Assembly (NCBI GenBank): GCA_963702845.1 | Contig: OY969763.1 | Span: 1,984,001-2,048,000, forward strand | Reading direction: 5' to 3' | Source of the DNA: an uncultured Verrucomicrobiae bacterium | GTDB taxonomy: Bacteria > Verrucomicrobiota > Verrucomicrobiia > Limisphaerales > Palsa-1400 | Length of the DNA stretch: 64,000 nucleotides | Shown here: positions 2,158 to 24,870 of the stretch, piece by piece | Layout: each line of letters begins with the position of its first letter | How positions within the stretch are numbered: the stretch's first letter is position 1 | Translations under genes and position numbers: made by a program | The notes under the pieces: generated by a model | Told to the model about the DNA's origin: nothing | The model's database searches: none | The model's input: only the letters and a program-made list of their open reading frames with translations

Positions 2158-2199
2158 TTGCCGTAGTCGGCAAAGGGATGTGTCTTGTTACGAGACCCG

Positions 2200-4018: not shown

Positions 4019-4075
4019 GTGATAAACACATCGAAATTAGACGGTCGCGGGGGACGCGCTTGCCGTTTAAAACAT

Positions 4076-4363
4076 ATCGACGCCTCTTTGATTAATTCCT
4101 AACGGTGTCAGTATCTGAAGTCTCACCACAACTCATGGCCGTCGCTAAGTCGGGGAGTTTTCCCTGCATATTTAATGCTATAATAAGGCCAAGAATTTTC
4201 CTCCACGTTCGAGGTCTGTCACGTTGTGGGGGACACGATATGCCGAATTCGGCAAATGGAAGTGTCGGAATGCCCTCTACTGAGAGCTGATTTTAACAAT
4301 AAAAAGTCACGAGTAAACACCGTTTGTCAAAACCACCGGTAAACACCTGTTAGCAGGTAAACA
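4076..4363. repeat. Junction repeat copy 1: recombinase 3' tail (4092-4235) plus 128-bp conserved arm (4236-4363)
   Basis: Direct repeat of 5756-6040; tail part also matches 7742-7885. Confidence 0.95.
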
Positions 4364-4413: not shown

Positions 4414-5373
4414 ATGACTAAGGTCACATTGGATACCAATTTATTGATTGAGCTTTTCGATCTCGGTATTGAGGGGAAAACAGTTCCGGCACTCGGAAAG
4501 ATTTTTAATCACTGTTTTGATTTTCAAAATATCGATCTCAAGATTACGACAAAAGTATCCGACGACTTGTTGGGGGATCGCATCAAGGAACGGGCCCAGG
4601 CATTAAAGCTGCGTATCGATAATTTGTTTTCCGTGCTCGGGGCAGGATACGTGTCCATCGATGATTTACCGAGCGATCCGATCGAAAAGCTCAACTTCAT
4701 TGAGCTTCAGCGAGTGCTTTTTCCAAATCTCATCACTACCGACAAGCGATATAAGAACAAGATCAACGATGTTCACCATCTCCATCGTCATATTCGCGCC
4801 GGCCGAGACGTCTTCATTACAAATGATTCCGACATGTTGAAAAAGAAGGACGCTTTAAAAACAGCGTTTAAAGTCGTGGTGATGAGTCCAGAGGAATGTG
4901 CAAAGTATCTCGATGTAATAACCGCGAAAGAAAGTTATCCTTTCGAGAAACACGTAGGTCGAGCCGACTATCATTCCCCGGCACTAAAAGGTACGGTGAC
5001 CTTTGATTTCACCAATAACGATCATAAGTATACGATTGGGACTGATGATTGGATTTTTGAAACTCGTTGGTCAGAGTGTAGCGACGACGAAATGTATGCC
5101 TACAACGACGCTCCATCGATCCTAGCATTGGCCGTTGCGGAGAATGTTTCGAAATTTAAGGACGTACATGATTTTGAAAGGTATGACTCAACATCTCGTG
5201 TTCGCCAACCTCGGAAGAATGTAGATATTCTCGTTCTGAAGAATTCGAAGGGATATTTTGCTGCGGTAAAGATCTGCAATATTGAGCTCAAACGCCGTGG
5301 GGGAAATAAGAATGAACTGACGTTTGAATACGTTATACAACCGAATGGGACATCATCATTCAAAGGTCTTTAA
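4414..5373 (+). CDS. PIN-domain ribonuclease-like protein fused to a beta-rich C-terminal domain (candidate anti-phage gene)
   Basis: N-terminal VTLDTN and NDVHHL..DVFITND acidic PIN motifs; separate C-terminal domain starting SPALKGTVTFDFTNND. Confidence 0.75.
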   Translation: MTKVTLDTNLLIELFDLGIEGKTVPALGKIFNHCFDFQNIDLKITTKVSDDLLGDRIKERAQALKLRIDNLFSVLGAGYVSIDDLPSDPIEKLNFIELQRVLFPNLITTDKRYKNKINDVHHLHRHIRAGRDVFITNDSDMLKKKDALKTAFKVVVMSPEECAKYLDVITAKESYPFEKHVGRADYHSPALKGTVTFDFTNNDHKYTIGTDDWIFETRWSECSDDEMYAYNDAPSILALAVAENVSKFKDVHDFERYDSTSRVRQPRKNVDILVLKNSKGYFAAVKICNIELKRRGGNKNELTFEYVIQPNGTSSFKGL

Positions 5374-5388
5374 TTGATAGTGCCAGGC

Positions 5389-6040
5389 TTGTACAAAATC
5401 CATTCATCTGGCAATGTGTGCCGATGGCGGATGAACTCAGTGAAGAACACAAGAAGGAGCTCGACCATGTCCTGGAAGCCGTTCAGCAATTCCTTTCTAC
5501 CGAAGAAGGCAGAGTAGTTTTTGATCGGCTTGAATCAATTTCAAACGGTATTCAGGCGCGGCAGGGGATAGTTGAACTCTCGTCGCACGAACGTCAGGCA
5601 CTACGATTCATTCAAACGGAACAAAGAAAGGGTTGTAATCCCTCTGTGCGGCAGATTTCGAAATCACTTGGATTTAGATCTTCTCGAACTGGCCACAAAA
5701 TTCTGAAATCATTGCGGACGAAAGGAGTTATTCCTGAACCTGCCGCCGACGTCAAATCGACGCCTCTTTGATTAATTCCAAACAGTGTCAGAATCTTCTG
5801 TGTCACCGTTCATAGCACGCTCAAGGTTGGGCAACTTGCCTTGGCGGTTTAATGCTATAATCAGGCCAAGAATCTCCTCACAGGTTCGAGGTGTGTCACG
5901 TTGTGGGGGACACGATATGCCGAATTCGGCAAATGGAAGTGTCGGAAAGCCCCCTACTGAGAGCTGATTTTGACAATAAAAAGTCACGAGTAAACACCGT
6001 TTGTCAAAACCACCGGTAAACACCTGGAGATAGGTAAACA
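5389..6040. repeat. Junction repeat copy 2: HTH promoter, HTH gene, recombinase tail (5772-5912) and arm (5913-6040)
   Basis: 5389-5912 is a direct repeat of 7359-7885; 5913-6040 matches 4236-4363 at 120/128 positions (manual count). Confidence 0.95.
5424..5771 (+). CDS. LexA-type winged-HTH regulator lacking peptidase domain
   Basis: LSSHERQALRFIQ..NPSVRQISKSLGFRSSRTGHKILKSLRTKGVI aligns with the LexA DNA-binding domain; ATG 6 nt after a -10 box. Confidence 0.85.
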   Translation: MADELSEEHKKELDHVLEAVQQFLSTEEGRVVFDRLESISNGIQARQGIVELSSHERQALRFIQTEQRKGCNPSVRQISKSLGFRSSRTGHKILKSLRTKGVIPEPAADVKSTPL

Positions 6041-6098: not shown

Positions 6099-7346
6099 AT
6101 GTTAGGTCAACCGTCAATTTCTGATTATTATCGCCAACTCGAACAAGAAGTTCGCAGTGATGTTATGCGCGAAACAGAAGAACAAATCTTAGGAACGGAT
6201 CCGGAGGAGTTAGCCCAGTATATTTTTGAGAAATATGCACTGTCACCTATAGAGCTAGATGCTGACCGTGAACCATCGTGGGATCCGCAAAATTACTTAA
6301 AGACGATTTCCGCTCAACAACGCGGTAATTTTTATGGGAGCAGTGGAGATCTCCGAGATTTTCCATGTCAGAAAGTTGCGGTTGAAGTCCCAATATTGCC
6401 AAATCCAAAGCTGCATCTCATTTCTCAAATGCATGGAGCGTCGTATTCATTGAGTTACTCGCTCAGTGACTTTCATTGGGGACAGGATTCCGTTTCGATG
6501 TCATTTCCAACGAAAGACTATCAATACCAAATGGATGATGCCGCAATAGCACATACAGTTGAGAATCAATTGCGGACAATCCACGAAACGATTAGTTCCC
6601 GTAACCAGGCTATTGAGCAGGGCAACAAACAATTGCTGACACAAACGAAATTTTATGTTCAGCAGCGTCGAGGAGAAATTGAGCAAAATAAACAGAAGCT
6701 CGAGGCTCTTACCAAGACCATCGGCGTTTCTTTAAAGAAGAAGGTTCCTGCGGGTGCACATCCTGTTCGTATTTCCCATACTCCACTTGTTCAAAGAGTA
6801 AAACCAAAACCAACGTTACCCGAGCAATATGTCCTAGATGAGAACAAAATCGATGATGTCATAAATTTGCTCGATAATCAGGCCCGTAGCTTCGAACAGA
6901 CTCCCGGCGCGTTCAAAGCATTAGGTGAAGAAGATCTCCGAGATATATTACTGTCGAATTTGAATTCCGTATTTGAAGGCGCCGCGACAGGGGAAACCTT
7001 TTCAAAAAAAGGGAAGACGGATATTTATCTGAAAATTGCGAAGGGTCAGATACTCATATGTGAATGCAAATTGTGGGCAGGTCGTTCTCTTTACGAAAAA
7101 ACTATTGATCAATTGCGAGGTTATCTGACGTGGCGGCATAACTACGGAATTATGATTACCTTTGTTCGTAATAAGGATTTTTCAAAGGTGTTACAAGAAA
7201 CCGAAAACGCGATTCAAGAACACCCATCATATCTGAATGGATTAAGGAAGATTGGAGAGACACATTTTGTATCTAATCACAAAGTTGATGACGATACGAA
7301 GGAAGTGAAGATTCACCATCTTTTTTATCACCTATATTCGAGTTAG
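6099..7346 (+). CDS. Coiled-coil protein with C-terminal PD-(D/E)XK restriction-endonuclease-like domain (candidate anti-phage gene)
   Basis: EEDLRD...GETFSKKGKTDIYL...ICECKLW gives E...D...ExK spacing; own promoter-like TTGAAA-N16-GATAAT 6 nt before ATG. Confidence 0.75.
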   Translation: MLGQPSISDYYRQLEQEVRSDVMRETEEQILGTDPEELAQYIFEKYALSPIELDADREPSWDPQNYLKTISAQQRGNFYGSSGDLRDFPCQKVAVEVPILPNPKLHLISQMHGASYSLSYSLSDFHWGQDSVSMSFPTKDYQYQMDDAAIAHTVENQLRTIHETISSRNQAIEQGNKQLLTQTKFYVQQRRGEIEQNKQKLEALTKTIGVSLKKKVPAGAHPVRISHTPLVQRVKPKPTLPEQYVLDENKIDDVINLLDNQARSFEQTPGAFKALGEEDLRDILLSNLNSVFEGAATGETFSKKGKTDIYLKIAKGQILICECKLWAGRSLYEKTIDQLRGYLTWRHNYGIMITFVRNKDFSKVLQETENAIQEHPSYLNGLRKIGETHFVSNHKVDDDTKEVKIHHLFYHLYSS

Positions 7347-7393
7347 ACATCAGTAGATTTGTACAAAATGCCTTAATCTGGCAATGTGTGCGG

Positions 7394-7798
7394 ATGACAC
7401 AAGAACTCAGCGACGAGCAAAAGAGGGAGCTTGATCACATTCTTGAAACTGTTCAGCAATTTCTTGCTACTGAAGAGGGAAAGGAAGCCTTCGATCGCCT
7501 TGAATCAATTTCAAACAGTATTCAGGCGCGACAGGGGATAGTTGAGCTCTCGTCGCACGAACGTCAGGCACTACGATTCATTCAAACGGAACAAGGAAAG
7601 GGCCGTAATCCTTCTGTGCGGCAGATTTCGAAATCACTTGGATTCAGATCTTCTCGAACTGGGCACAAAATCTTGAAATCATTACGGACGAAAGGAGTTA
7701 TTCCTAAACTTGCCACTGAAGGCAAATCGACGCCTCTTTTATTAATTCCAAACGGTGTCAGAATCAGAATTCTCACCACAACCCATGGCCGTCGCTAA
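7394..7798 (+). CDS. LexA-type winged-HTH regulator (paralogue of 5424-5771)
   Basis: Near-identical HTH; TGA stop of the other copy is TTA here, so it reads into the convergent recombinase tail. Confidence 0.85.
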   Translation: MTQELSDEQKRELDHILETVQQFLATEEGKEAFDRLESISNSIQARQGIVELSSHERQALRFIQTEQGKGRNPSVRQISKSLGFRSSRTGHKILKSLRTKGVIPKLATEGKSTPLLLIPNGVRIRILTTTHGRR

Positions 7799-9313
7799 GT
7801 CGGGGAGTTTGCCCTGTTTATTTAATGCTATAATCAGGCCAAGAATCTCCCCACAGGTTCGAGGTCTGTCACGTTGTGGGGGACAACCACTTATTTTATT
7901 CCGATTTGCGATCTCATGAAACGGAGATTGGAGCTTTAATTCTAGGTTTTTTGCCGTTGCCTGCCAGTTCGAGGTAAGAGTTTTGAGCATTTCACGTTTT
8001 TCTTCTGGGATTGCCATTTGGTAGCTCAACCAAGCGTTTCCTGCCAGTTCGAGGAATTTTTCTACGCGACTCATATTTCGCCCGTTCGAGCGTTCACAGC
8101 GCGCTAGTTGTTCTTCAAATGTTTTCTGTTCAAGGAGCAGAGCCTTTTTCTTTTGCTCAAAGAGTTCTTTGTCTAACACCTGGTCTAAATAGGCGTCGGT
8201 CAGGCGACTGAGACGTTCTTTTGCTTGGCCTAGCTGCATTTTCAATGCCCCTAACTGGGCTTCACGTTCGCTCTCCCAGTTTCCCTTCAGGCGCTTAACT
8301 TCCGTTTTGAAAAATTCCTTTTCTTGATCGTTGAAAGTCATCAGTCGAATCAATTCTTCAATTGCCACGCTGATGTCTTCTTCTCGAAAGCTGGTTGCGG
8401 GACACGCTCGGGTGTGACAGCGATAGTAGGCATGGCCCTTTTGTCGCTCGCCGATGAGCGAGTATTCACATGTGGCGCAGCGAACCATCCTACGGAATAG
8501 GAACACATGACGCTGTGTTTTTGCGCCACATTTGCCCGAAAGAACCGCTTGGACGCGATCAAAGAGCGCTCTCGTGACTAGGGGCGCGTGAATGCCGGAG
8601 AATGTTTCGTCCGTTTTGCGTATGCGGATTAAGCCCATGTAAAACGGGTTGTTAAGTATAACTGACAGGGAATTCCTGTTGACGCTTCCGCCCTTGCGTT
8701 GCCGCAGTCCACGTTTTTCTAACTCGATGCGCAGGGCCTCCAACGAAAAGCGCCCGCTTCCGTAAAGTTCAAAGACTTGGCGGACAAGCGGCCCCATAAC
8801 CGGATCAATGGTTTTTGGCTGTGCTTTTCCGCGGTCAACATAACCAATCGGCGCTTGAAGCGGATATAAGCCTTGTTTCAGGCGGCCATAGAAACCTTTG
8901 CGGGTCTCTTCGCGTAGGTTGCGAATGTAGTCAGCGGCAACTACTGCCTGGATGTCGGCGGAGAGCCGCCCGCCTCGTGTTTGTAGGTCAATGCTTTCAT
9001 TAACAAAGTGGACTTCAACTCCTTGATCTGAAAGTTCACCGATTGCTGCCCAATCGCGCAGGTTACGCGCGCCACGATCGAGCTTGTGAAGAATGATTCC
9101 TTGAGCTTTACCGGTGCGCAGAAGTTTCAGTGCCTGGTTGAACACCGGACGGCCTTGTTTTGCTGCGGTTTCCATTTCCTCGAGCCATGTCGTGATTGTG
9201 AACTGGTGCTGGTTTGCGTAGCGAGAAATAGCGTCTCGCTGTTCCTGAAGCGACACGCCTTGCGTCCCTTGTTTTACGGTGGAAACCCGTATGTAGCCGA
9301 TATATCCCTGCAT
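7742..9313 (-). CDS. Large serine recombinase (integrase)
   Basis: YIRVST catalytic Ser motif, KLDRGAR, recombinase domain (APIGY, LNNPFYMG), Zn ribbon CATC..YYRCHTRAC, coiled coil. Confidence 0.97.
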   Translation of the reverse strand: MQGYIGYIRVSTVKQGTQGVSLQEQRDAISRYANQHQFTITTWLEEMETAAKQGRPVFNQALKLLRTGKAQGIILHKLDRGARNLRDWAAIGELSDQGVEVHFVNESIDLQTRGGRLSADIQAVVAADYIRNLREETRKGFYGRLKQGLYPLQAPIGYVDRGKAQPKTIDPVMGPLVRQVFELYGSGRFSLEALRIELEKRGLRQRKGGSVNRNSLSVILNNPFYMGLIRIRKTDETFSGIHAPLVTRALFDRVQAVLSGKCGAKTQRHVFLFRRMVRCATCEYSLIGERQKGHAYYRCHTRACPATSFREEDISVAIEELIRLMTFNDQEKEFFKTEVKRLKGNWESEREAQLGALKMQLGQAKERLSRLTDAYLDQVLDKELFEQKKKALLLEQKTFEEQLARCERSNGRNMSRVEKFLELAGNAWLSYQMAIPEEKREMLKTLTSNWQATAKNLELKLQSPFHEIANRNKISGCPPQRDRPRTCGEILGLIIALNKQGKLPDLATAMGCGENSDSDTVWN

Positions 9314-9324
9314 GAAATTTGCTG

Positions 9325-9531
9325 TTACCCGGAAGGCGGGGTACAGGGTAACGTACCGGTACCAGCGGTCAACTGGCCCTTCTGTGGATTGGATTCGATG
9401 CGTTCAAAAACGCGCAACACGAGAGCCAGATACCGATGCAAGCTGTCCTCAGCTTGGCGCAATTCGTCTTCGCTTAAATCGGGATACAATTCACGAATTT
9501 GTGGAGTGGTTTTGTCCACGTTTAATGGCAA
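9325..9531 (-). CDS. Small helical hypothetical protein upstream of the recombinase
   Basis: IRELYPDLSEDELRQAEDSLHRYLALVLRVFERI; co-oriented, stop 11 nt before the recombinase start; true start uncertain. Confidence 0.6.
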   Translation of the reverse strand: MPLNVDKTTPQIRELYPDLSEDELRQAEDSLHRYLALVLRVFERIESNPQKGQLTAGTGTLPCTPPSG

Positions 9532-9537
9532 AGCACT

Positions 9538-9711
9538 TTAGTTGTCGTTCCCGCCCTCCTTTTTCGCGTTAAAGACGACTCCGAAGAACCGTAGCAAACG
9601 CACGGCCATTTTCTGCACCTGTTTGTCCGTAAGCAAAATCCCGAATACTTCTTTATAAGCGGCCTTGAACTCCTCGATAGCCTCGCGACCCAGTTGTTGT
9701 TGTGTTTTCAT
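9538..9711 (-). CDS. 57-aa hypothetical protein (below ORF-track cutoff)
   Basis: Manual translation MKTQQQLGREAIEEFKAAYKEVFGILLTDKQVQKMAVRLLRFFGVVFNAKKEGGNDN; resembles the N-terminus of the 1831 HTH protein. Confidence 0.7.
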   Translation of the reverse strand: MKTQQQLGREAIEEFKAAYKEVFGILLTDKQVQKMAVRLLRFFGVVFNAKKEGGNDN

Positions 9712-9739
9712 GTGTCCACATTAACGCGTGGAAAATACC

Positions 9740-9900
9740 CCGCCCAGACACGGCGGTATGCCGAATTCGACAACTTGTTCATTATCGTATGCTTGACAGA
9801 ATTATGAATATGTGTTATAAACCCACACTGACTGCGCCGGAATGCGCGGGTTTTTGTTTATAGGACTTGCCGAAAACGGCAAATGGCAGTGTCTGGGCGG
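9740..9900. repeat. 34-bp imperfect inverted repeats (9740-9773 and 9867-9900) flanking a promoter
   Basis: CCGCCCAGACAC at 9740-9751 is the exact reverse complement of 9889-9900; 27/34 match overall. Confidence 0.85.
9793..9821 (+). promoter_or_regulatory. Near-consensus sigma70 promoter TTGACA-N17-TATAAA with extended -10
   Basis: TTGACA 9793-9798, TG 9813-9814, TATAAA 9816-9821. Confidence 0.75.
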
Positions 9901-9951
9901 ATAGGCCCAAGCTGCGTAATCTTCATCCTGAACTCTCAGGGAGTTTTCACT

Positions 9952-10311
9952 ATGGCTTCTCGTCGTCTTTCAAATTACCTGGTCTCAGAAAGGAAGCGCC
10001 TTGCTCTTTCACAAGAGGAGGTGGCTTTCATGCTGGGTAAAAAGACAGGAGAGCAGGTATCGCGTCATGAGTGCTTCTCGCTGGTGCCGACGCTCGAGAC
10101 CGCGCTCCAATACGAAGCGATATACAAAAAACCGGTCAGCGAACTGTTCGCCGGGCTGTTTGATAACGCGCAAGCGGATGTTGCTGATCGCGCGGAACTA
10201 TTGTCAAATCGCGAGCGAAGGACAAAGGGAAAGGAGCGGAATGCCATAAAGAAGCAGCTGTTTGAGGGTCTCGCCTTCGGGGAAATTCTGAAAAATCATG
10301 GGCAAAAATAA
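9952..10311 (+). CDS. XRE-family HTH transcriptional regulator
   Basis: LSNYLVSERKRLALSQEEVAFMLG..VSRHE..PTL; SD-like AGGGAG upstream of ATG 9952. Confidence 0.85.
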   Translation: MASRRLSNYLVSERKRLALSQEEVAFMLGKKTGEQVSRHECFSLVPTLETALQYEAIYKKPVSELFAGLFDNAQADVADRAELLSNRERRTKGKERNAIKKQLFEGLAFGEILKNHGQK

Positions 10312-10827
10312 ACACCAACTTCAACGTGTTCTCGGGCTCGCCGTTTCGAGTCGCGGCTTTGGCTATGCGCTCTTTGAAGGAGAGAAATTGGTCAATTGGG
10401 GCTTTGCCTCAACTAAACAAAAGCAGAATGTCAACGCGTGGTGTGCAAAGCGGATCGAGAGAATGGTTAAACAGTATGAGCCGGATGTGATTGTAATCGA
10501 AAGCGTATTTGCAAACGGTGCTGTCCGTTCGCCGCGTGTTCGCCGGCTTGCGAAACAGATTGAAGTGATAGCAGGTAGACGACAGTCGCGCGTTAAATCA
10601 TTTTCGAAACTTCACGTGATCAAATCCGTCTGCGGAACCGTATCAGCGACGAGGCACGACATGGCTGACAAAGTTTCCAAACTATATCCAAACGAACTCT
10701 CATTTCGTTTACCCAAGCGGCGCGGAACCTCGTATCCGAAGACCGTCGTATTCGCATGTTTGAGGCTGTGGCTTTAGCACTTCTCGTAGTAAAAGGACGA
10801 AGCTGCACGCCTGTGGATGATTTTTAG
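10298..10827 (+). CDS. RuvC/RNase H-fold resolvase-like protein, 1-bp frameshift near 10730
   Basis: RVLGLAVSSRGFGYA..PDVIVIE pattern; the C-terminal SEDRRIRMFEAVALAL motif is in the adjacent frame ending at TAG 10825-10827. Confidence 0.65.
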
Positions 10828-11079: not shown

Positions 11080-13734
11080 ATGAAATTTGGAGCGTTTCTT
11101 ACCACACTGATCCTTTCTGTCTTCGGTTTCCACGCCGCTAATGCTGATGTCGTTGTTGGCGGAGCTGCAGTCGTACCTGCGATTTGGTCGCAACCTTTAA
11201 GCCAGACGACCGGATTCGGGACTGACGTGACTTTCACAGCCGGTGTCACTGCGGACAGTCCGACATACCAATGGTTCAAGAACGGAGCGCCTCTCGCCGA
11301 CTACAACAACATCGCGGGATCGAGCTCGGCCATGCTTCATGTCGTTGGCGCGGCGCTTGATGACGCGGGAAGTTACAGCCTAATCGTGACGAGCGCGGCG
11401 GGGCTTTCCAGCACCAGCACTGTTGCGACGCTATCAATTAACCAAAAACTCGTCTTCGCAGACGATTTCGAAAGTGGGCTGGCCAACTGGAAGGCGGGCT
11501 ACGATTCAGTAATGTTGAATTGGGATACGAATGTTAACCATACGCCTGGCGGCACCAGCTCGGCATTGGCGTCGGGAAAACCGAGCAGAATGCATCATAG
11601 CCTGGCAAAGAAACTGCACGGTCGACTGCAACTCTCGTTCTGGATGTATGACGACGGAGTGAGCAAGATGGCTGTAGGAGAGGTCTGTGGCTATTCGGGC
11701 GAGAATGGCTATGGTCGCTACGCCATTCACGACGGATTCGGCCTGATCCAGTCACTGGGCATTGGTTACCGTTCCTTCACCGGAACGAACGTTGAGGCGC
11801 GCGCCGAACAATTGGATGCGACGAAGTATCAGGCACATGTTTTGCGAGGACCGGGACATGGCTGGTTCAACCTGAGTGCGCCTGGAGCGCCGACCCGGTC
11901 CCGCGGCTGGCATAAGTTTGAGATACGGCGGTCGAAGGACGAGCACATTATCGACTTCTACGTCGACGGTGTTCTTGGTCGGCGAATCCGCGAGGCGCGG
12001 TCTGCGGACCTCGACACCATTATCGTGGGATCGTGGGGAGCACTGGGGCAAGGGGACGGGTCGGGAGCAACTGGAGTCTGCAGCTTTGATGACATTGCGC
12101 TTGAGGCGTATCCCGCTACGTTCGACTACGAATCATCGGCACAGAGTGGTCCCGTGCCCACGATCATGCAGCTTCGGGAAACCGGCACGAACGGGGCAGT
12201 TTCCGGCGTCACTGCGGTTACGGCTGTGGAACTGGCTGGCTCGGCCGCACAAGCCATAGCCGGCAAATGGGAAGCGATAAGCACGGGCATGCTCGCGACA
12301 GACGTTCGCGGACAACTTGCGTATTCGATCACCGTTCCGTCAGACGACGTATACCGCATTGAAATCGAAGGTCGTGAAGAGTCCGGACGCATGCCCGAAG
12401 TAGATTTACCGCTCAACGTGTCGATGGACGGAGAATATTTGGGCCATTTCAATTTGGAGTATCACAGGCAGACGAGCGGCCGCGTTCATTGTTTCACGCC
12501 GTTCATCCGAGCGGGAGTGCACAACGTGGTGATCGAATGGGACAACGCCCGTCCTCGCCGAGCGCTTTACCTAACTGCTGTACGCCTGCAATCGCTGCCG
12601 AGTTCTGTCGTCGCCAACAACGGTATTAAGCAGTGGGTCGTTAATAGATTGTCGGCTGAATGCGGACTGGAAGTGATTCCCCGAGCAAGCAAGGTTTCTC
12701 CAGTCTGCATCGAAGGCCGGGCGCGCTATCATAAAAATATGACCGTGCTGGCGGGCGAGCAGTATCCGCTCGCGCCAGTGACAGCCCATCACGGTACGGG
12801 ATATCGCTGGTATGCGAACGTTCCGTTGTCCGCTACGAACGTGACCGCAGTGGAAGTCTCGTATCAAAGCGGAGTTGTATCCGAAACCAACACCATTGTG
12901 TGGGAGCCGACGGACGTTCTCACGGAAGCCGATATGCAGATTCGAAAAGGAGATTCACTAATCTTCAACGCGGTTCCCGCAGGTGTTTCAAACGGCACGT
13001 TCAGGATCAGCATCAATTCGCAAAGCATCAATGCTGACGCGTTGAGCGTGGTTCCGTACCGGTTTTCTCAGCCGGGCACCTACACTGTCACCGGAACGTA
13101 TCTGAATTCTGGCGCATCGCGCTCGATAAACGTGCATGTGATTGACGCTTCGCTGCCCCGCATTGTGGCGGTGGTGGGATGGCGAGCGCATTGGTATTGC
13201 ACGAATCTGCCGCCTGAAGTCGTCATAGACAGCGATCCTCGAATATTACTCGGCACTCCGCAGGGCATACGTCCAAAGCGAGTTATTCAGAAGACCGCTG
13301 CGCCTGCTGCGCCGCAGGGTGAAAACGCACGTGATTTCAACATTCGCAACGCCTCGACTGAAGAACCTCGGTATGTCGTGGCGCGATTGGGAACGAATGG
13401 TCCGATCATGGCCAGCGCGACTATACAGGGTATCAAGTTTGCCATTCCACCTGAGACGCAGCTGCGAGTGATGGACCGTAAAGAGGATGGCACGCAACTC
13501 ATCGAAGGTACGTATCTCGTCAATCCGATGCTGCCGACGCTGACTGTCGGTTTCCGAATCGCGACTGCCGGAGTGACTTTCGATGACGGCACGGTCCAGA
13601 AGCTTTTGACGCCGACAGACTTCGACGGCCTGGGTCTTTGCAGGCTTCGTTTCGTGCGAAGCACGGGCGTTCAGGGAAGCGTCTGTCACGACATGCAGGT
13701 GTACGAGAATGGCGTTCTGATCAATCACAAATGA
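11080..13734 (+). CDS. Secreted multidomain protein (signal peptide, Ig-like, lectin/CBM-like beta domains)
   Basis: Signal peptide ..HAANA; Ig-like SQPLSQ..YQWFKNG..DAGSY; FADDFESG lectin-like start. Confidence 0.8.
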   Translation: MKFGAFLTTLILSVFGFHAANADVVVGGAAVVPAIWSQPLSQTTGFGTDVTFTAGVTADSPTYQWFKNGAPLADYNNIAGSSSAMLHVVGAALDDAGSYSLIVTSAAGLSSTSTVATLSINQKLVFADDFESGLANWKAGYDSVMLNWDTNVNHTPGGTSSALASGKPSRMHHSLAKKLHGRLQLSFWMYDDGVSKMAVGEVCGYSGENGYGRYAIHDGFGLIQSLGIGYRSFTGTNVEARAEQLDATKYQAHVLRGPGHGWFNLSAPGAPTRSRGWHKFEIRRSKDEHIIDFYVDGVLGRRIREARSADLDTIIVGSWGALGQGDGSGATGVCSFDDIALEAYPATFDYESSAQSGPVPTIMQLRETGTNGAVSGVTAVTAVELAGSAAQAIAGKWEAISTGMLATDVRGQLAYSITVPSDDVYRIEIEGREESGRMPEVDLPLNVSMDGEYLGHFNLEYHRQTSGRVHCFTPFIRAGVHNVVIEWDNARPRRALYLTAVRLQSLPSSVVANNGIKQWVVNRLSAECGLEVIPRASKVSPVCIEGRARYHKNMTVLAGEQYPLAPVTAHHGTGYRWYANVPLSATNVTAVEVSYQSGVVSETNTIVWEPTDVLTEADMQIRKGDSLIFNAVPAGVSNGTFRISINSQSINADALSVVPYRFSQPGTYTVTGTYLNSGASRSINVHVIDASLPRIVAVVGWRAHWYCTNLPPEVVIDSDPRILLGTPQGIRPKRVIQKTAAPAAPQGENARDFNIRNASTEEPRYVVARLGTNGPIMASATIQGIKFAIPPETQLRVMDRKEDGTQLIEGTYLVNPMLPTLTVGFRIATAGVTFDDGTVQKLLTPTDFDGLGLCRLRFVRSTGVQGSVCHDMQVYENGVLINHK

Positions 13735-14630
13735 GCCGGTCTCTCGTCATCCGTTGTTTGCTAAGCCTGCATGTCTGCGCTGCGGGAGTGCTTCCTTGTC
13801 GGGCGCTTGAGCAGTTGTCGACCAACTTTAACGGCCAGGCTCTTTCGGTGCGCGTCTTAGCGAAAAAACTGGCCTCAACCGACAATCGCAAGGTGTGGCT
13901 TATTTGTGACAGCGACGCTGAGATAGGCGTTCGGCTTGATGCTGCGCGCACACTGGGTAATGAACTGAAAACGGCAGATGTCCGGGCCTTGTATGATTTC
14001 CTAAAAGCTCACCCCGACCGTTCGGAGCGGAATCTCGCCGGCTTGCGGTTTCTTAAAAATGAGGTTTTCGGAACGTTAATAGAGCAGACCGTCCCGCCCG
14101 CGGGGCTGGCCGAAGCCATGGCTGTGGTGTGGGCGGATCATGAGCAGGACATCGTCGCGCGAGACTATGCAATTCAACACATGGCTGTTTGGTACGATGA
14201 CAATCCCGAACGAAAGGATTCCGATCGGGCGCTGATTCGCGACGTGCTCCTGCGGGCTGCGCACGAGCAAAGCAGCCTGGCCGGAACGGCTCTTATCGGA
14301 CTGCATCATGTCTCGGCATTTGATTCCGACATTAAGAGCCGAACTGTAGATGACCTCGCGTTCCAAATGGCAGCTTCAATTTCTATGCCGGATACCGCCA
14401 GGATTACCGCAGTGCAAATCTGCGCACAACGCCGAATTGTCGCGGCGACTCCGGTAATCGAGCAGATCTTGAAGGACTCACAGAACCCTACGTTGCGTCT
14501 TTCCGCCATGTCCGCATTGAACACGCTTCGCGGGGCAACGGGCGGTTACAGCGACATCGAGCATGGCGCGCTCAGCGATTTTTCCGCTCGATCTCGGAAC
14601 CAACAACGTCAGGACTCAACACCGTTCTAA
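13731..14630 (+). CDS. Exported HEAT/ARM-repeat-like protein
   Basis: ATGA overlap with upstream stop; helical repeats VRLDAARTLG, ARITAVQI, LRLSAMSAL. Confidence 0.65.
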   Translation: MSRSLVIRCLLSLHVCAAGVLPCRALEQLSTNFNGQALSVRVLAKKLASTDNRKVWLICDSDAEIGVRLDAARTLGNELKTADVRALYDFLKAHPDRSERNLAGLRFLKNEVFGTLIEQTVPPAGLAEAMAVVWADHEQDIVARDYAIQHMAVWYDDNPERKDSDRALIRDVLLRAAHEQSSLAGTALIGLHHVSAFDSDIKSRTVDDLAFQMAASISMPDTARITAVQICAQRRIVAATPVIEQILKDSQNPTLRLSAMSALNTLRGATGGYSDIEHGALSDFSARSRNQQRQDSTPF

Positions 14631-14643
14631 TCGAGTACCACGC

Positions 14644-16491
14644 ATGAATAAAATAGCATTAGCAGCAATCGTCACATTGCTGGCCGTTCTTCGGTCTGAG
14701 GCGCGGCTTCCAAATGGTTGCGCGTATGATAGGAGCACCAACTGCACCGTTGAGCCAAGCTTCGCGCTGTCACTTGCCGCGCCAGCTGGCGGCAATACCT
14801 GGCCTATCTACAACTACGGCGACACGGTTAATGCCAAAGCGTTAATCGTGACCAATTGGGGCGAACTTACGATCTTCACGACAAACGAAGACTGCTCTTG
14901 GTTTCCGACGCTGGTTCTCACCAACTCGCACGTGGTATCGTCTTCCTGGATCGCGGTCGGACCCGATTCGAGCTATACGAACACTGGCTCCGGACTGACG
15001 GCGAGCTTCACTGCTACGCACGGCGTCGGCGTCGGCGATATTACTTTTTATCTGACGTTCAGCAATAGTTTGCCATGTACGAACCTTCAGGCGACTTCTC
15101 TCCACGTTCATTACCAAGCGCAGACCAACGACGTGATCGAAGGCAATTGCGCGAGCGATACCCCGGTGCTTCTCAGCGCCTGGGGGTTTGACCCGCCGTT
15201 ATCGCTGTGGTCGGGCGAGAGTAACGCTAATGACAGCGTAGGGACATATAACGGGACGTGGATCGGCTCGGCTAGTTATACGAACGGGATTGTGGGGGCA
15301 GCATTCTATTTTAACGGCAGCAGTTACGTGTCATGTGGCACAAATGTAGGCAACTTTGGGACCAACGATTTTACAATTGATTTTTGGGTCAAGACGACAC
15401 AAACCGGCTCATCATACATTGTCGGCAAGCGTCCCATATGCAACCTCGCCAATTTGTGGAATGTCCGCATGGTTGACGGTCACCTTTATCTTGAATCGAT
15501 TGAAAATACCTCTGGCTATGCGTTTACGACGCTCATTTCTGATTCCACCGTCAACGATGGGGTGTTTCATCATGTGACCATCACGCGAGATGGCGCGTTG
15601 CAGGCTATATACATCGACGATGCATTTGACAATGCAATCGAATCGGATGCCATCGCCAATCTGAACAATAATGTGGAACTATGGGTCGGACATAATGTCT
15701 GCGGCGGCAGCTTCGTTGGCGTTGTCGACGAACTCAGCATTCTTACTGGCAGTGCCAGTCCTTGGGTTGGCAGTCGTGGGCAAGGCCCTCTTGTTATTAC
15801 GAACATCCAGCAGAGGCCGAGTCCGTGGGGCAACAGTCTTCAAGTGGACAGTTCGACGAACGCCAGCTTGAGCTATCGGTATTTCGATGAAGACGGAATC
15901 GCGAACATCAACTGCAAGTCCGGTGCTGTACGATTTTGGATAAAGCCGAACTGGAACGGCGGAACAGGCCCTGGTAGTCCCGGCAGACTGATCGAAATGG
16001 GCGACACCAACTCGACCAGCGGCTGGTGGTCTCTTTCGGTGAACTCTTCCGGAAATCAGATTTCGTTCCAAACCAAGTCCAACGGAAATCTCACCACCTA
16101 TTTTACACAGTCGATCAGCGACTGGAATTCCGGCTATTGGTACCACATCGTCCTCAACTACGCGGCTGATCAAACCGCGCTTTACACAAACGGCATCTTG
16201 GCGCAGACGGGGATCGGACTCACGAATTACCCGACCTTAGCCACTCGTGAGGCGTATGGCTTCAGTATAGGCAGCGACCACTCTGGAGCCAATCGTTCTG
16301 CTTCGAGATTTGATGAGTTCGCCACCTTCTGCGCCCCTCTGAGTGCAGAGGACATCCTGGATGACTATGTCAACGGTCTGATGAGTTCAACCGTGGGGGT
16401 TGGAACCGGTATTCCCGATTGGGATACCTACAACCAACTGCACGCCACAACCAATAACGGAGCACTCGAAGTGTTTACTCCGTTGAAGTAA
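14644..16491 (+). CDS. Secreted LamG/concanavalin-like jellyroll domain protein (two domains)
   Basis: Signal peptide MNKIALAA..; DFTIDFWVKT..VFHHVTITR..IYIDD and WYHIVLNY..LYTNG LamG motifs. Confidence 0.85.
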   Translation: MNKIALAAIVTLLAVLRSEARLPNGCAYDRSTNCTVEPSFALSLAAPAGGNTWPIYNYGDTVNAKALIVTNWGELTIFTTNEDCSWFPTLVLTNSHVVSSSWIAVGPDSSYTNTGSGLTASFTATHGVGVGDITFYLTFSNSLPCTNLQATSLHVHYQAQTNDVIEGNCASDTPVLLSAWGFDPPLSLWSGESNANDSVGTYNGTWIGSASYTNGIVGAAFYFNGSSYVSCGTNVGNFGTNDFTIDFWVKTTQTGSSYIVGKRPICNLANLWNVRMVDGHLYLESIENTSGYAFTTLISDSTVNDGVFHHVTITRDGALQAIYIDDAFDNAIESDAIANLNNNVELWVGHNVCGGSFVGVVDELSILTGSASPWVGSRGQGPLVITNIQQRPSPWGNSLQVDSSTNASLSYRYFDEDGIANINCKSGAVRFWIKPNWNGGTGPGSPGRLIEMGDTNSTSGWWSLSVNSSGNQISFQTKSNGNLTTYFTQSISDWNSGYWYHIVLNYAADQTALYTNGILAQTGIGLTNYPTLATREAYGFSIGSDHSGANRSASRFDEFATFCAPLSAEDILDDYVNGLMSSTVGVGTGIPDWDTYNQLHATTNNGALEVFTPLK

Positions 16492-16502
16492 CGATCCGCA
16501 AC

Positions 16503-19500
16503 ATGCAATCGAATCACACGCAATCAGAGTATCCCAGATCGCATCAACGACAAAAGTTTTTCAATCCGTGTCCAATGCAAGTTATCCCGTTCGAAAAATT
16601 AACCAGGCCCGTTTCACAGCGTTTTGTCACCTTGCTTTTGCTCGTCGGCATTTCGTGGTTCGTCGATTGTTGCGATGTTCGCGCGCAGTCGTGTTCGGCA
16701 AACGGGCAAACGTTAGGCGCTTATGTCCAGTACCAGACGGTTTACGCCGATCTGTCGAAATGCTGTTTTCCCGAATATACGAATTTGGATCTGCCGAGGA
16801 TCCATATGTATCACACCCAGCGGATCGTCGGAGACTACGGCTATCATTACACAAATGATTTTACAGAGGCCACCAATTGGTCCGGTGGGTCTGACGGCAG
16901 ACAATGGGAGTACCATGCCGGAGTTTACTCAGAGCACGATAATACGACTCGGAATTTTGATTTCACTGAAAATAGGTACGTGCGCGCGGAGATAACGAAC
17001 TATTGTTTTTATACGAACAGTTGTTCGGGCGACCTTTCGACCGACAATGAAATGACTGATAGTCGATATTACCATTCGTGGAGCTCTGTTGATGGCGAGG
17101 AATCCGATTCAGCGTCCTCGTCCTCCGTTGTATCGGGGACGGTTACCACTAATGACTGCTGCATTTCTCCATTCCCATGCAATCCTAACGGTCATGATGT
17201 AGCCTATGGTTTCGTTGGTTCATGGAGTGATATCACACACGTGTACAATTACTATTCTTCTGGCTCTGGCGGCCCCACTTCGGACCCCGATAAAACAACC
17301 TCCAGCACGAACACGGGTAACATATCCTGTTTAACTGTGCATAGAGCTTTGACTCAAATTGATACTCCAATTAAGGCTGAGTCGGATTTCAGTGTCACAA
17401 ACACAAGTTTACCTCCACTGTGCCCTAGTTGCTCAAGTGATGCGTTCGTCGATTCTACGCATGATGTTTTTAACTATACACTTTCTTACGAGTATACGGA
17501 CGAGGAACTGAGTAATCACATTGTCGGGTTAATGGGGGATTTCTCCGGAAGTTGGTATACACCGGACGGCTCTGGCAACGAATTCTATAAGACAACAGCC
17601 TATTCAATGATTGATGGCGATCATGTCCATGGACAGTGGCAACCTACCCAAGAGGGAGGGAGTTACCCGGTCGACGCCGAGATGCAGAAGATGAAGTATC
17701 GGATCGTGATTCCAAACACGGAAGCTTGGAAGCGTTACCAAGTGTCTTGGGATCTGATAACATACGACTTTACCACCGGAGTAATCGAAACTGTCCCTCA
17801 CATTGTTTATATCGATGGGACTGGAGAATCTGATCAAATTTACGCTGGCGAGGAGATTGTGAACCCTCCCCATTGGGACGACAGTCGCGACTTTTTCGGA
17901 GGCGTTGTTGCAACGTGGGTGGACAACCTTGCTATTTCAGAGACATCGGAGAACCTTGCTGGCGCTGGACCGGGATCTTTGAGTTGGAGCGGGAATGCCT
18001 CGGGTTGTGCGACATGTGGCAGCGCTCGATCGGCCTTGCAGCATTCGCCATACGGTGCTTTGGCCGCGTCTTTCGCTTTAGGCAATGCGTTGGGGTATGG
18101 TTCAGCCGGAAACTTGGAGATATTGGCGCGCGTGCCGGACGTCAATTTGGCGACGCCCAAAAGCATCATTTACCCTGACGGGATTCCTTCGATCGAGGCG
18201 ATCCGGTTATCGGGAGTCTTGCGTCAGGTTAACGCTCCGCAAGCATTGGTGGACATCGTCACTCTCGATTCATTCTCATATGAGTTACGGTACTACCTGC
18301 CGTCCCAGGTTGGGAGCCTTAGCGGCGGTGTATACTCGGTGACGGGAAGCCCCTTTGTCACTTGGACGATCCAAAATCCAGATGCCTCCACCAATACGTA
18401 TAATCGGCTTCAGATTACTGAAACCCGCGGATCGGATAGCCGCGGATTTCTGTACACCTATAATCCGACGAATTCGGTCTGGACTTTGACTCGGCCTGAT
18501 AATTCACAGGAAGAGATCGCCACCGGGTTCACTAACAACGTGGATTGGATTACCCTGAATGTAACGAACACTGTCCGCAGTCCGTTGGGGGTGACGAATT
18601 TTCAGGAAATTCGCGTTTATCAGCGCCCAATTGGAATTCAGCCAGTGAGCGTCAGCGGATCGACGACCAATCGCGCAGAGTTGAGGTCGAATCCGCAGAT
18701 GAAATTTTATTTAACGACGAACATTGTAAATCCCGGCTCGAATGCGAAAGTAACCACGTACAGTTATTACGACAATTATACCAGCCCGTACGCGTGGGGA
18801 GCATGGTTCCATTCAACGATTCCTCCCGTTAAGTACATTAAGAGATCGGACGGCACATGGGAATATTTCGCCTATAACGCTCAAAACGTGACGGATCACG
18901 TCACGCCGTTCGGGGACGCTGCGGCACCAACATCAGGTGCCCCGTCTTACTCCACGTCGCGACATACCGTCTATTCGGAATTTGACGGAGGCGATTTTTT
19001 GACTTACGCGCAGGATACAGTGCAGGAGGATAAAGCGCATTGGACCACGCATATTTCGTTCACGACGAACTTGTCTCCTGGCGTCCATTTTTACGGTGAA
19101 ACTGATGGAACGCAAAATTATCACACCATTACGGGATACTTCACGAACGGATTTAATGCGGGCAGGCTGCAAAGCGTGCAGAAACCGGACGGCACGTTGA
19201 CGCTTTACGCCTACGACATTGCTGCCGACGCCACGCAGACGAATACCGTTTGGTCCGGGGCACCCAACAGTGACAAGACAGCAGTGGTCGATGGCACTAA
19301 AACTGTCACAATTATGGGGCCGGTTGGACAGATAATCTCCTACACGCAAACCGATATACGTTCAGGAATAACATTGGCGAACGACGTGTATGGAAACTAC
19401 GACTCACTTAGCCGGCCGCAGTTGGTCACACACATGGATGGAACAACAGAGCAGAAGTATTATAGCTGCTGTGGAATTGATTATACGGTCGACCGTGACG

Positions 19501-22500
19501 GTGTTACGACTCAGTATTACTATGATGATGCCAAGCGACAGGTGGCGACTTTCCGCAACGGTATAACGACGAGCAACCTGCTGGACTCCGTCGGTCGTAT
19601 CTTGAAAACAGTGCGAATCGGAACCGACAACTCGCAGATCGTGTTGGGGCAATGGCAATACGACCTATCGGGCACTCTGATTCGACAGACCAATGCGTTG
19701 GGGGGCGTGACAAGCTATACTGAAGGGACAGGTGGGCTTGTAAGGACGACTACAAATCCAGACGGCGGAACGATCATCGAAACTTATTATGGTGACGGAC
19801 AACTGAAGAGCCGCACCGGGACGGCGGTCCACGGCGTCGCATACTCTTACGACGTGGACTCGCCTGGGCACCGGATCACGACGGAAACCAAACTGACGGC
19901 TGCTGGCGTCGCTACCTCCGAAGCCGTGAGCTCGTACGTAGACTGGCTCGGAAAGCCTACGAAGACTGTTTACAGCGATACTGCGGGGTCGAGTATTCAG
20001 TATTCCTACAACACCGTCGGCCAATTGGCTCAAGAAATCGATCCCGACGGCGTCACCACGCTCTATGGATACAATCTCAAAGGAGAATTAACTACAAACG
20101 CGATTGATATGGAAGGTTATGGCACAATTGATCCGAGCGGCACTAATCGCATCACTTTTACCACCAATGATGTCGTTTCTGATCACGGAGTGAACGTCCT
20201 GCGCTCCCGTACGTATGTTTGGATGACAGACAACGACGATTCGCCGTCGCTGGTTTCGATGTCCGAAATGTCCACGGACGGCTTGCAATCGTGGCAAACG
20301 CGTTACCGCGACTCAAGCACGCCCGTCACAACACACTCTCAGACGGTCTATAGTGGCACGAACCGCACAGTTACCGTGACCACCCCTGACAATTCGTGCA
20401 CCGTTACACGGTATTTGAACGGGCGATTAAGCTCCACCACGCAATACGATTCAACGCCCACCCAGATTGGCAGCACAACTTACGGCTACGATGCCCATGG
20501 CAGGCAGAACACCGTCACCGATGTCCGCAATGGAACTATGGTTTACACATTCAACGATGCTGACTTGGTGGTTACGGTGACGACGCCTGACCCTGGAGTC
20601 ACGGGCGGTTCGCCGCAGACGCTGACTACCCTTTATAGCAAGTCACTGGAGGCGACGAATACCATCATGCCAGACAGCACGTCAGTAACAAATTTCTATT
20701 TACCGACGGGAGAAGTCTCACTCACCTGCGGCTCGCGAACGTATCCGGTCGGCTATAGCTATGACTATGCTGGCCGCGTGAAATCGATGACTAACTGGTC
20801 GGACTTCTCGAGCCGGAGCGGAGCGCGAGTGACCACCTGGGATTACGATCCATATCGCGGTTTTCTCATCGGCAAAGTCTACGCAGACACCAACGGACCA
20901 TCATATCAATACACTGCTGCAGGACGGCTTCGTATTCGCACTTGGGCGCGAGGCACCAATACCACCTACGGTTACACACCCGCGGGCGACCTTTACACGG
21001 TGACCTACGACGATGGTTCCACCCCTTCAGCAACGTGCAGCTACGATCGCATCGGCCGGATGAATTCACTGGTGCGGGACGGGATGACAACCACGTTGGC
21101 TTATGACTTTGCCAACGATCTCTTAAACGAATCGTATTTGGGAGGCGTTTTAGATGGGTTGTCAGTGACGAACGGGTATGACGCGAAGCTTCGCCAAACT
21201 GGGTTAGGAGCATTGTCTGGTTCTTCTGTCCTGACCAGCGCCGGATATACTTACGACAATGCTTCAAGACTGGCAACAGTGACGTCTGGTACAGAAAGCG
21301 CCACATACAGTTACGTGGTTAATTCGCGGTTAGTGGGGCAGATTGCGTTCAAGCACGGCGGTTCCACGAAGATGACGAGAACCAAGCAATACGACCGTCT
21401 TAATCGCCTGACTTCAATCTCATCTATACCCACGCTGGCGACTTTTGAGTACGGGTACAACAACGCGAATCAACGTGTCCGTGCAACGCTTCCGGATAGC
21501 TTTTGGTCATACGGCTACGACGACCACCTGGGGCAGGTCACGTCAGGAAAGAAATATTGGAATGATGGAACGCCGGTTGCCGGGGAGCAGTTTGAATACA
21601 ATTTTGACGACATTGGGAATCGGAACACGACGAAAGGTGGCGGCTATGAAACCGGAGATTATCTGCGTCTGGCCCACTACACCAACAATCTTGTGAACCA
21701 GATTACGAGCCGCGATGTGCCCGGTTTTAAAGACATCACCGGCCTGAGTCTTGTTACCAACGCCGTAACCGTGAACACCGAGAGCACCTATCGAAAGGGC
21801 GAGTATTTCAGAAAGGAGCTGGTCATTACCAATACGACATCACCGGTGTGGACGAACGTCTCAGTTGTGGCGGGCATTCAAGGTGTTTCGGGTAATTGTC
21901 TTGTACCAAAAACGCCAGAAATATTTAGCTACGACGATGATGGAAACCTAACTTGTGACGGGTTATGGATATACAAGTGGGATGCCGAGAATCGCCTCGT
22001 TTCCATGGAATCAGTTTCGACAATTCCAATAGTAGCGAAGAAGAAAATCAATTTCGCGTACGATTTTCATGGGCGTCGCATCCAGAAGCTGGTCTCAACC
22101 AACAACGGCACGAGCTACGTTGCCCAGTATACAAATCGCTTTGTTTACGAGGGCTGGAATCTGATCGCGGAAGTTGCGCCGAATAATTCGGCGGTTCGCA
22201 CGTATTTGTGGGGGACAGATTTGAGCGGAGGAATGCTAGGGGCGGGTGGAATCGGCGGCTTGCTCGAGATATCGTATTTTGGAGCTTCCACAACCAATTG
22301 TTTTGTGGCCTTCAATGGAAATGGGGATGTCAGCGCGTTAATCAACACTTCGAATGGCGGCGTTTTGGCTAGCTATGAATATGGCCCTTTCGGTGAAACC
22401 ATCCGCGCTACTGGAACGATGGCAAAAGTTAATCCGTTCCGGTTCTCGACCAAATACAACGATGATGAGAGCGATTTGATTTATTATGGATATCGTTACC

Positions 22501-24594: not shown

Positions 24595-24870
24595 TTAAGC
24601 CGCCACCATTTCCAAGATTTCGACCAGCTTGTTCCACTCCGCGCCGTCTGGCTGTTGTCGGTCACGTTCCCAACGTTGGAGGAGCGCCCGCCCAATGCCT
24701 ATCAATTGCGCCAATTGCCGCTGAGTAAGGCCTTTCTCAACCCGCTTGGCCTTGATGTGGTCTCCGAGCGTTTTAACCGTTGTCGGGAAGGCTTTACGTG
24801 GGCTACGTTCAACTGGAATATATGCGCGAGATGCCTTAATTTGGCGGTGACAAAAACCCAACAGTGCTAA
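24595..24870 (-). CDS. XRE-family HTH protein, possibly a remnant lacking a clear start
   Basis: TLGDHIKAKRVEKGLTQRQLAQLIGIGRALLQRWE. Confidence 0.7.
   Translation of the reverse strand, partial: LALLGFCHRQIKASRAYIPVERSPRKAFPTTVKTLGDHIKAKRVEKGLTQRQLAQLIGIGRALLQRWERDRQQPDGAEWNKLVEILEMVAA

Follow-up and report, generated by a model that had tools for sequence, protein, structure and literature searches.

Integrons rely on the tyrosine recombinase IntI and on the attachment (att) sites attI and attC. A locus that recalls them lies in the 64,000-nucleotide stretch analysed here (the window; positions 1,984,001 to 2,048,000 of contig OY969763.1, from an uncultured Verrucomicrobiae bacterium), where small cargo units stand in a row beside a recombinase gene with repeated junctions as their bounds. 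Unlike in integrons, the adjacent enzyme, which we call LSR1, is a large serine recombinase (LSR) and not an IntI-type tyrosine recombinase, its site lies within the recombinase gene, and the units, whose mobility is putative, carry a promoter-like arm and a regulator of their own. Closer comparisons come from stacked islands. In the part of the published account of the Dehalococcoides ssrA islands drawn on here, the serine recombinase DsiB overlaps the att site and has its C-terminus set by the neighbouring island, and some of the units are without an integration module (PMC3146451). For cis-mobilizable and integrative mobilizable elements (CIME and IME), the sections of the source considered describe accretion of integrase-less elements (PMC5704250).

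The locus resembles both the Dehalococcoides and the CIME/IME systems, and it is neither a member of the ssrA islands nor an integron. Within the described features considered here, it shares with the Dehalococcoides islands a recombinase of about 500 residues, a 3' end that overlaps an att site, a C-terminus that varies with the adjoining island, tandem islands and module-less units (PMC3146451). It differs from that account in its predicted target, tRNA-Ala/Glu in the LSR1 family instead of ssrA, in the absence of a DsiA partner, and in having a site that is intact inside an island bounded by a second recombinase, LSR2, with no tRNA found beside the array. The set of ssrA, 20-bp repeats and DsiA/DsiB that marks those islands in the same account was not found: there is no tRNA or tmRNA in the window, the tmRNA lies about 300 kb off, and no second small serine recombinase occurs among the neighbouring genes scanned. 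With CIME/IME the locus has in common decayed elements that lack an integrase, keep their att ends and are stacked at one site; in contrast to the elements treated in the part of that source used (PMC5704250), its partner arms cannot be recognised as att arms, and many of them terminate in a small partner gene or an operator palindrome.

Our preferred reading, which we regard as probable, combines an attP function for the site within LSR1 (site 1), targeting of tRNA genes, an operator function for a palindrome upstream of the recombinase (site 2), and junctions (J1 and J2) that were made as scars by an LSR and then stacked. The ~130-kb island would have entered through LSR2, and the attP of LSR1 would therefore have been left uncut. 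J1 and J2 would be scars left when, on rare occasions, an LSR1-type crossover joined such an attP to a non-canonical partner beside a unit's own operator-promoter. The recombinase-less units would then have accumulated behind the gene, through either site-specific accretion or homologous recombination within the ~177-bp tails. The features on which this reading bears most directly are as follows.

7742..9313, minus strand: LSR1, large serine recombinase of 523 aa, with matches to Pfam Resolvase, Recombinase and Zn_ribbon_recom, all above cut-off
7857..7911, minus strand: site 1, a likely intact attP-type site within the LSR1 gene (crossover AC 7883-7884; arm motif TCGAAC 7862-7857)
7709..7884, minus strand: tail of the gene, comprising the P' arm and the final codons; operator-motif copy at the distal end (7711-7736, plus strand)
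6099..7798, plus strand: unit 3, with cargo open reading frame (ORF) 6099-7346, which matches the PADLOC candidate defence family PDC-S54 (E 3e-80), and a LexA-type helix-turn-helix gene (7388-7798)
5730..6040, no strand assigned: J2 region, where a tail copy (5730-5912) meets, at AC 5910-5911, a right arm that includes the operator motif (5918-5943, plus strand)
4414..5771, plus strand: unit 2, with a cargo ORF without convincing family (4414-5373) and a LexA-type helix-turn-helix gene (5418-5771)
4059..4363, no strand assigned: J1 region, where a tail copy (4059-4235) meets, at AC 4233-4234, a right arm that includes the operator motif (4241-4266, plus strand)

The locus was compared with its relatives in a set of 106 loci, made up of the window, the genome locus G025, 22 of 26 genome loci (the four with less than 30% identity being excluded), 80 metagenome loci and two of three viral loci. 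A class-wide genome search added just 3 of 400 further genomes, and the viral collection gave the three loci. The loci are partly near-duplicates, and kin are not independent. The 3' end of the LSR gene was anchored in 83 of the 106, the remaining 23 being cut off or missed. Nine anchored loci, five reading into a tRNA and four mis-anchored or unclear, were left out of the counts based on 74 gene ends; one of these four, L140, was retained in the tail-copy count. Counts of tail copies cover the 49 loci with at least 3.5 kb of downstream sequence.

LSR1 itself scores under the cut-offs of CcrB, XisF and other NCBIfam equivalogs, and its final 47 codons lie beyond the AC at 7883-7884, which is GT in gene orientation. 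We read this dinucleotide as the DNA crossover of the LSR1 family because the GT is kept, tRNA-fused relatives turn there and tail copies start there. Of 74 related gene ends, 71 have it 23 nt upstream of a conserved Arg codon, and the TCGAA arm motif is kept in 73-74 of the 74, counted per column. Among 72 distinct ends, the codon at the crossover is GGT in 43, TGT in 19 and AGT in 7 (69 in total), and the Arg codon in the arm is CGA in 71; for comparison, codon use in the gene body is 16% for GGT, 36% for TGT and 14% for CGA. The constraint at the crossover and at TCGAA acts on the DNA level, including synonymous positions. When profiles of the true arms were applied to 7,280 GT sites, both arms of site 1 were top-ranked. 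Five of six tRNA-fused relatives turn into the tRNA at the GT (L082, Glu; L085, L136 and L055, Ala; L116, partial), and the tRNA-type relative L052 reads GC instead of GT.

The TCGAAC motif lies 22-27 from the centre in attP and 16-21 in the tRNA T-loop, which places it 6 nt nearer the centre in the tRNA; this geometry is seen in the right arm only. The left arm of site 1 doubles as coding sequence, and its best mirror-image motif is a 4/6 match that is off register. In three gene ends (L097, L093 and L103) the arm motif CCTCGAAC is doubled within the tail with 14-15-nt spacing. A central dinucleotide with a distal arm motif that is nearer the centre in attB also describes the serine integrases of the A118/LI type, for which the portion of the source considered gives a shift of 5 bp (PMC3783163), unlike the 6 nt in the predicted sites of the LSR1 family. 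Site 1 is likely an intact attP within the recombinase's own gene with its crossover at AC 7883-7884, and we infer that the LSR1 family would normally integrate at the 3' ends of tRNA genes, an event after which the tail of the recombinase gene would stand at the opposite end of the element. The original prediction had placed a recombination core at the GACA of site 1, and this GACA likely does hold the crossover dinucleotide.

At J1 and J2, copies of the last ~177 bp of LSR1 bound the two small units. The region 4220-4363 at J1 is 94% identical to the J2 region, though the cargo differs, and the tails in the window are 79-88% identical over about 180 bp, with tail 2 looking mosaic in pairwise alignments. 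A tail profile run over the 6.03-Mb genome found no copies beyond those at J1 and J2. Across the family, tail copies occur in 13 of 49 loci and bound units of 0.2-3.2 kb. The GT is in register in 15 of 16 of them, and the copy in G025 is without its first ~29 nt. The partner arms to which the tails are joined are mostly unrelated to each other across loci, and a perfect inverted TCGAAC occurs in 2 of 15, against a background of 0.65%. Upstream of the junctions the operator motif is present in 7 of 13 loci and a small partner gene in 4 of 13. In L038, L103 and L122 small2, the gene that directly precedes LSR1 in the window, lies shortly before the tail copy with no recombinase body between, and in L114 it lies about 1 kb before the tail. 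Recombinase-less units with a precise downstream breakpoint recur in the family, since junctions are often preceded by such relics of the region upstream of an LSR; the att side of the junctions is exact, and their other side varies. Because the partner arm is unlike a P arm, the case for catalysis by an LSR at J1 and J2 rests on the exact start at the GT. In two partner arms, L079:9350 and L103:2986, there is a perfect inverted CTCGAAC, displaced in both by 2 nt from the attP or attB mirror register.

The original prediction paired site 1 with a second site, here site 2, which includes one of several copies of the motif TGCC-N6-GGCA-N9-GTC.

9718..9772, minus strand: site 2, operator-promoter-like motif with palindrome 9759-9772 and GTC 9747-9749, including the dyad 9740-9756; weak -35-like box at 9741-9746 and -10-like box at 9718-9723
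9868..9900, plus strand: motif copy inverted relative to site 2, preceding the XRE gene and forming a 34-nt inverted repeat with 9740-9773
2159..2184, plus strand: one more motif copy, ahead of cargo genes and with neither tail nor GACA alongside

The window holds seven copies of this motif (at 2159, 4241, 5918, 7711, 9772, which is site 2, and 9868, plus one outside the island) compared with a mean of 1.19 in shuffled sequence, where 0 of 100 shuffles reached seven, and two more copies lie to the left of the window, at distances of 33 and 86 kb. The upstream regions of 38 relatives share the palindrome, with 87-100% conservation in each column, and weak -35- and -10-like boxes with 17-nt spacing follow it. 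The GAC of site 2 is the GTC of this motif and is intact in 21 of 40 equivalents. Controllers of the C-protein/QseC type bind palindromic boxes just upstream of weak promoters, between a divergent XRE gene and an operon; the layout of site 2 is like that of these XRE operators, and its box sequence differs. Like an operator, the motif has a conserved palindrome at a fixed place ahead of transcription units. Site 2 likely serves the recombinase operon as operator and putative promoter, and it is probably no recombination site. Among 72 related tails, 28 have a palindrome 60-330 nt past the crossover, at +154 in 10 cases, compared with 15% of random windows. Each tail in the window also carries the operator motif at its far end (7711-7736, 5741 and 4061), facing the crossover, and the copy at 7711 is the top match genome-wide.

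As a candidate att site, site 2 was rejected. Its arms fall at the 37th and 10th percentile of the 7,280 GT sites, which is the level of random sites, and the near-invariant TCGAA arm motif is absent: at the attB register the right arm matches 3 of 6 positions and the left arm 0 of 6, and none of the 21 equivalents with an intact GTC exceeds 3/6 of TCGAAC at either register. The palindrome itself, of which L038 has a full two-sided copy, was also considered as an att site and set aside, as it has no family arm motif and precedes genes far from recombinases. The short dyads that had been taken for the cores of the two sites are present as described, letter for letter (4-bp arms at 7876-7890 and 5-bp arms at 9740-9756, both centred on GAC), and they are unremarkable as a pair. 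A comparable pair, defined by an equal odd spacer, an equal central trinucleotide and arms of at least 4 with one of at least 5, occurs in 85 of 150 random 2251-nt windows of the genome; the region 7700-9950 alone holds 108 dyads with arms of at least 4 bp, and among 94,049 GAC sites 0.48% carry 4-bp arms and 0.13% carry 5-bp arms. Conservation does not mark them as functional cores either, with the site-1 dyad found in 1 of 71 related sites (the window only) and the site-2 dyad in 2 of 21 (the window and L063).

The similarity between the junctions and site 2 had suggested programmed self-excision, in which LSR1 would join site 1 to site 2, free its own gene on a 1865-bp circle that gives it a new C-terminus, and travel from junction to junction. 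In its favour, the crossover dinucleotide is present at each site, directly oriented, an L063 dyad recurs at the site-2 position, and in characterised systems, as far as the source considered covers them, an attP x attB-like deletion needs no directionality factor (PMC3783163). The 18/20 identity of 4236-4255 to 9754-9773 is real, as are the circle length and the eight-codon in-frame ending as letters. That ending is no sign of design, given that a stop falls within 8 codons after 29% of 7,272 random GT junctions in the island, and the identity is mostly the 14-bp palindrome, the following 20 bases agreeing at 4/20. Over 26 nt the junction arm matches the 9868 copy at 23 positions and site 2 at 17, and similarity to both upstream copies stops after the GTC (18/60). 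Of 16 junctions, 8 (from 7 of 13 loci) have the palindrome no more than 45 nt away, each with a p of 0.007 or less; its gaps to the GT measure 1, 4, 5, 6, 6, 13, 14 and 21 nt, the position of the GT at the G025 junction being the analyst's choice; the gap of 9 nt that a site-2 product would have occurs in 0 of 8, and in L103, where the gap is 9, the motif is not significant. Serine recombination neither gains nor loses bases, and the real junctions are 3 bp shorter than the product of site 1 and site 2. The length-conserving products expected of an att site were thus not found for site 2, and neither predicted product 20-mer turned up in the genome or the 105 other loci when as many as 3 mismatches were allowed, a weak test with relatives this distant. 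No self-excising serine recombinase gene was found in the open-licence literature. With dyad pairs common, the GTC lost from nearly half of the site-2 equivalents and the arms at random level, we consider this mechanism very improbable. The notion of hybrid junctions survives in a weaker form: both, at 4232 and 5909, have the look of recombinase products with the crossover dinucleotide as the joint, and they likely bound LSR-less units as LSR-made scars, with a parallel in the Dehalococcoides islands, but site 2 is unsupported as the partner. Under our preferred reading, the junctions would resemble site 2 because each unit opens with a copy of the same palindrome. A mosaic origin of the junction arm stays conceivable.

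Such a mosaic is part of a reading in which attP once recombined aberrantly with a GT at or close to site 2, with loss of the recombinase from an ancestral unit, after which collapse between two palindromes and a 3-bp loss gave the arm of J1 and J2. The junction arm is indeed site-2-like on its left, with the same GAATTC spacer, and 9868-like on its right, and loss of the body does happen, as L038, L103 and L122 demonstrate; in those cases, however, the upstream break falls after small2 and not at the site-2 equivalent. This course requires three events and does not account for the loss of similarity to both copies after the GTC, and a copy of the 9868 type explains the spacer as well, because the spacer is near the family consensus and, in 5 of 13 pairs, the spacers of the two upstream copies agree at 4-6 of their 6 bases. 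We find this course unlikely. An active serine-recombinase counterpart of an integron, in which units excise as circles by recombination between junctions and re-enter at site 1, each with a new tail, would fit the order of the array (body and tail, then arm and tail twice), the near-identity of the J1 and J2 arms around different cargo, the tail-bounded units in other loci and the two partner arms with a perfect inverted TCGAAC. The partner arms in the window are without att features, there are just two units here, and most serine integrases treated in the part of the source considered work poorly outside attP x attB, or attL x attR when a factor is present (PMC3783163), which makes this a rather unlikely account. 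An origin with no recombinase action, by one chance deletion followed by duplication and cargo exchange through homologous recombination, draws on the identity of the tails and the mosaic look of tail 2, but would have to produce the same starting dinucleotide in all but one of the 16 tail copies next to mostly unrelated partner arms, and we give it almost no credence.

Several results weigh against the reading we prefer. At site 2, a sigma-70 scan did not call the proposed -35/-10 pair, the hairpin passes a loose terminator scan, and L063, whose enzyme is 76% identical, has a 5-bp dyad with the same centre in other letters, which brings the count to 2 of 21, roughly a 2-3% event at the genome rate. 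At the junctions, site 2 is still the best single match to the first 20 nt (18; next 16), the J2 right arm falls at the 48th percentile of the P-arm profile, and the J1/J2 partner arm fits the attB-register motif at just 3/6. Three tail copies are weak by E-value (0.12, 4.9 and 5.9), and a fixed mirror register for the partner arms was rejected, the registers differing among loci.

The ends of the larger island involve the second recombinase, LSR2 (G000:C1:1878223-1879716), which is 23% identical to LSR1.

24595..24870, minus strand: predicted split-off tail of LSR2 with an XRE domain, at the right end of the ~130.6-kb island; arm at 24847-24864

An 18-bp inverted match connects window positions 24847-24864 with the 3' end of LSR2 at genome positions 1878244-1878261. 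LSR2 appears to be split by its own att site, with the body at the left end of the island and the XRE-domain tail at the right, and the excised form would therefore be a recombinase-XRE fusion. The same two LSR2-type ends surround an intact LSR1 site in L044, and in G025 LSR2 reads into a tRNA-Ser, with a tail-like frame at the opposite end of an island that holds tail copies. A gene of LSR2 type is found downstream in 6 loci, and a coupling-ATPase homologue is downstream on the same strand in 18 of 18 cases. From these arrangements, such islands could presumably enter by either recombinase, and the present one would have entered via LSR2.

Further genes lie next to LSR1.

9325..9534, minus strand: small2, helical gene directly before LSR1 (start uncertain; helical model with a predicted local distance difference test score, pLDDT, of 78)
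9538..9711, minus strand: small1, 57 aa, first gene of the predicted recombinase operon, with no Pfam or NCBIfam match
9952..10777, plus strand: XRE-like regulator gene (9952-10311) and RuvC-like gene (10298-10777), divergent from the LSR operon

In 99 of 106 loci small2 lies upstream of the LSR at a distance of no more than 1.8 kb, and four recombinase-less units have kept it. It has no match in Pfam, NCBIfam, Atlas families or PDB folds, and we regard it as a candidate directionality factor. The HTH_3 match of the XRE-like gene is weak and below the cut-off, and the RuvC match is above it; genes of the two types are upstream of the LSR in 40 and 28 of the 106 loci, respectively, and downstream in some. 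At the other side of the array, the gene at 1831-2157 encodes a small1-like N-terminal domain fused to a LexA-type helix-turn-helix, with an operator copy directly after it. The block from Ig domain to RHS repeats at 11080-23297 is duplicated in the island at G000:C1:1962918-1974994, with about 80% identity over 5.2 and 1.7 kb, and the second copy adjoins a truncated LSR1-like gene.

Taken as a whole, the locus seems to vary a theme already known from stacked mobile islands. It would be surprising if a recombinase excised its own gene and exchanged its C-terminus in doing so, and the evidence does not support such a switch. A bolder idea, which we think doubtful, is that LSR1 serves as a cassette-capture platform in islands that integrate through a second recombinase, with small units entering and leaving at its intact attP and a protein bound to TGCC-N6-GGCA steering the recombinase to adjoining partner sites; if true, this would be a serine counterpart of the integron in which partner sites are chosen by a regulator and not by sequence. 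The operator palindrome stands beside half of the junctions, at variable distance, and three genomes (that of the window, L044 and G025) have an LSR1-type enzyme in an island with the ends of a second LSR. For this widespread LSR family, the analysis resolves the position of the crossover and the geometry of attP and attB down to the dinucleotide and predicts the 3' ends of tRNA genes as targets, and LSR1 is therefore directly testable.

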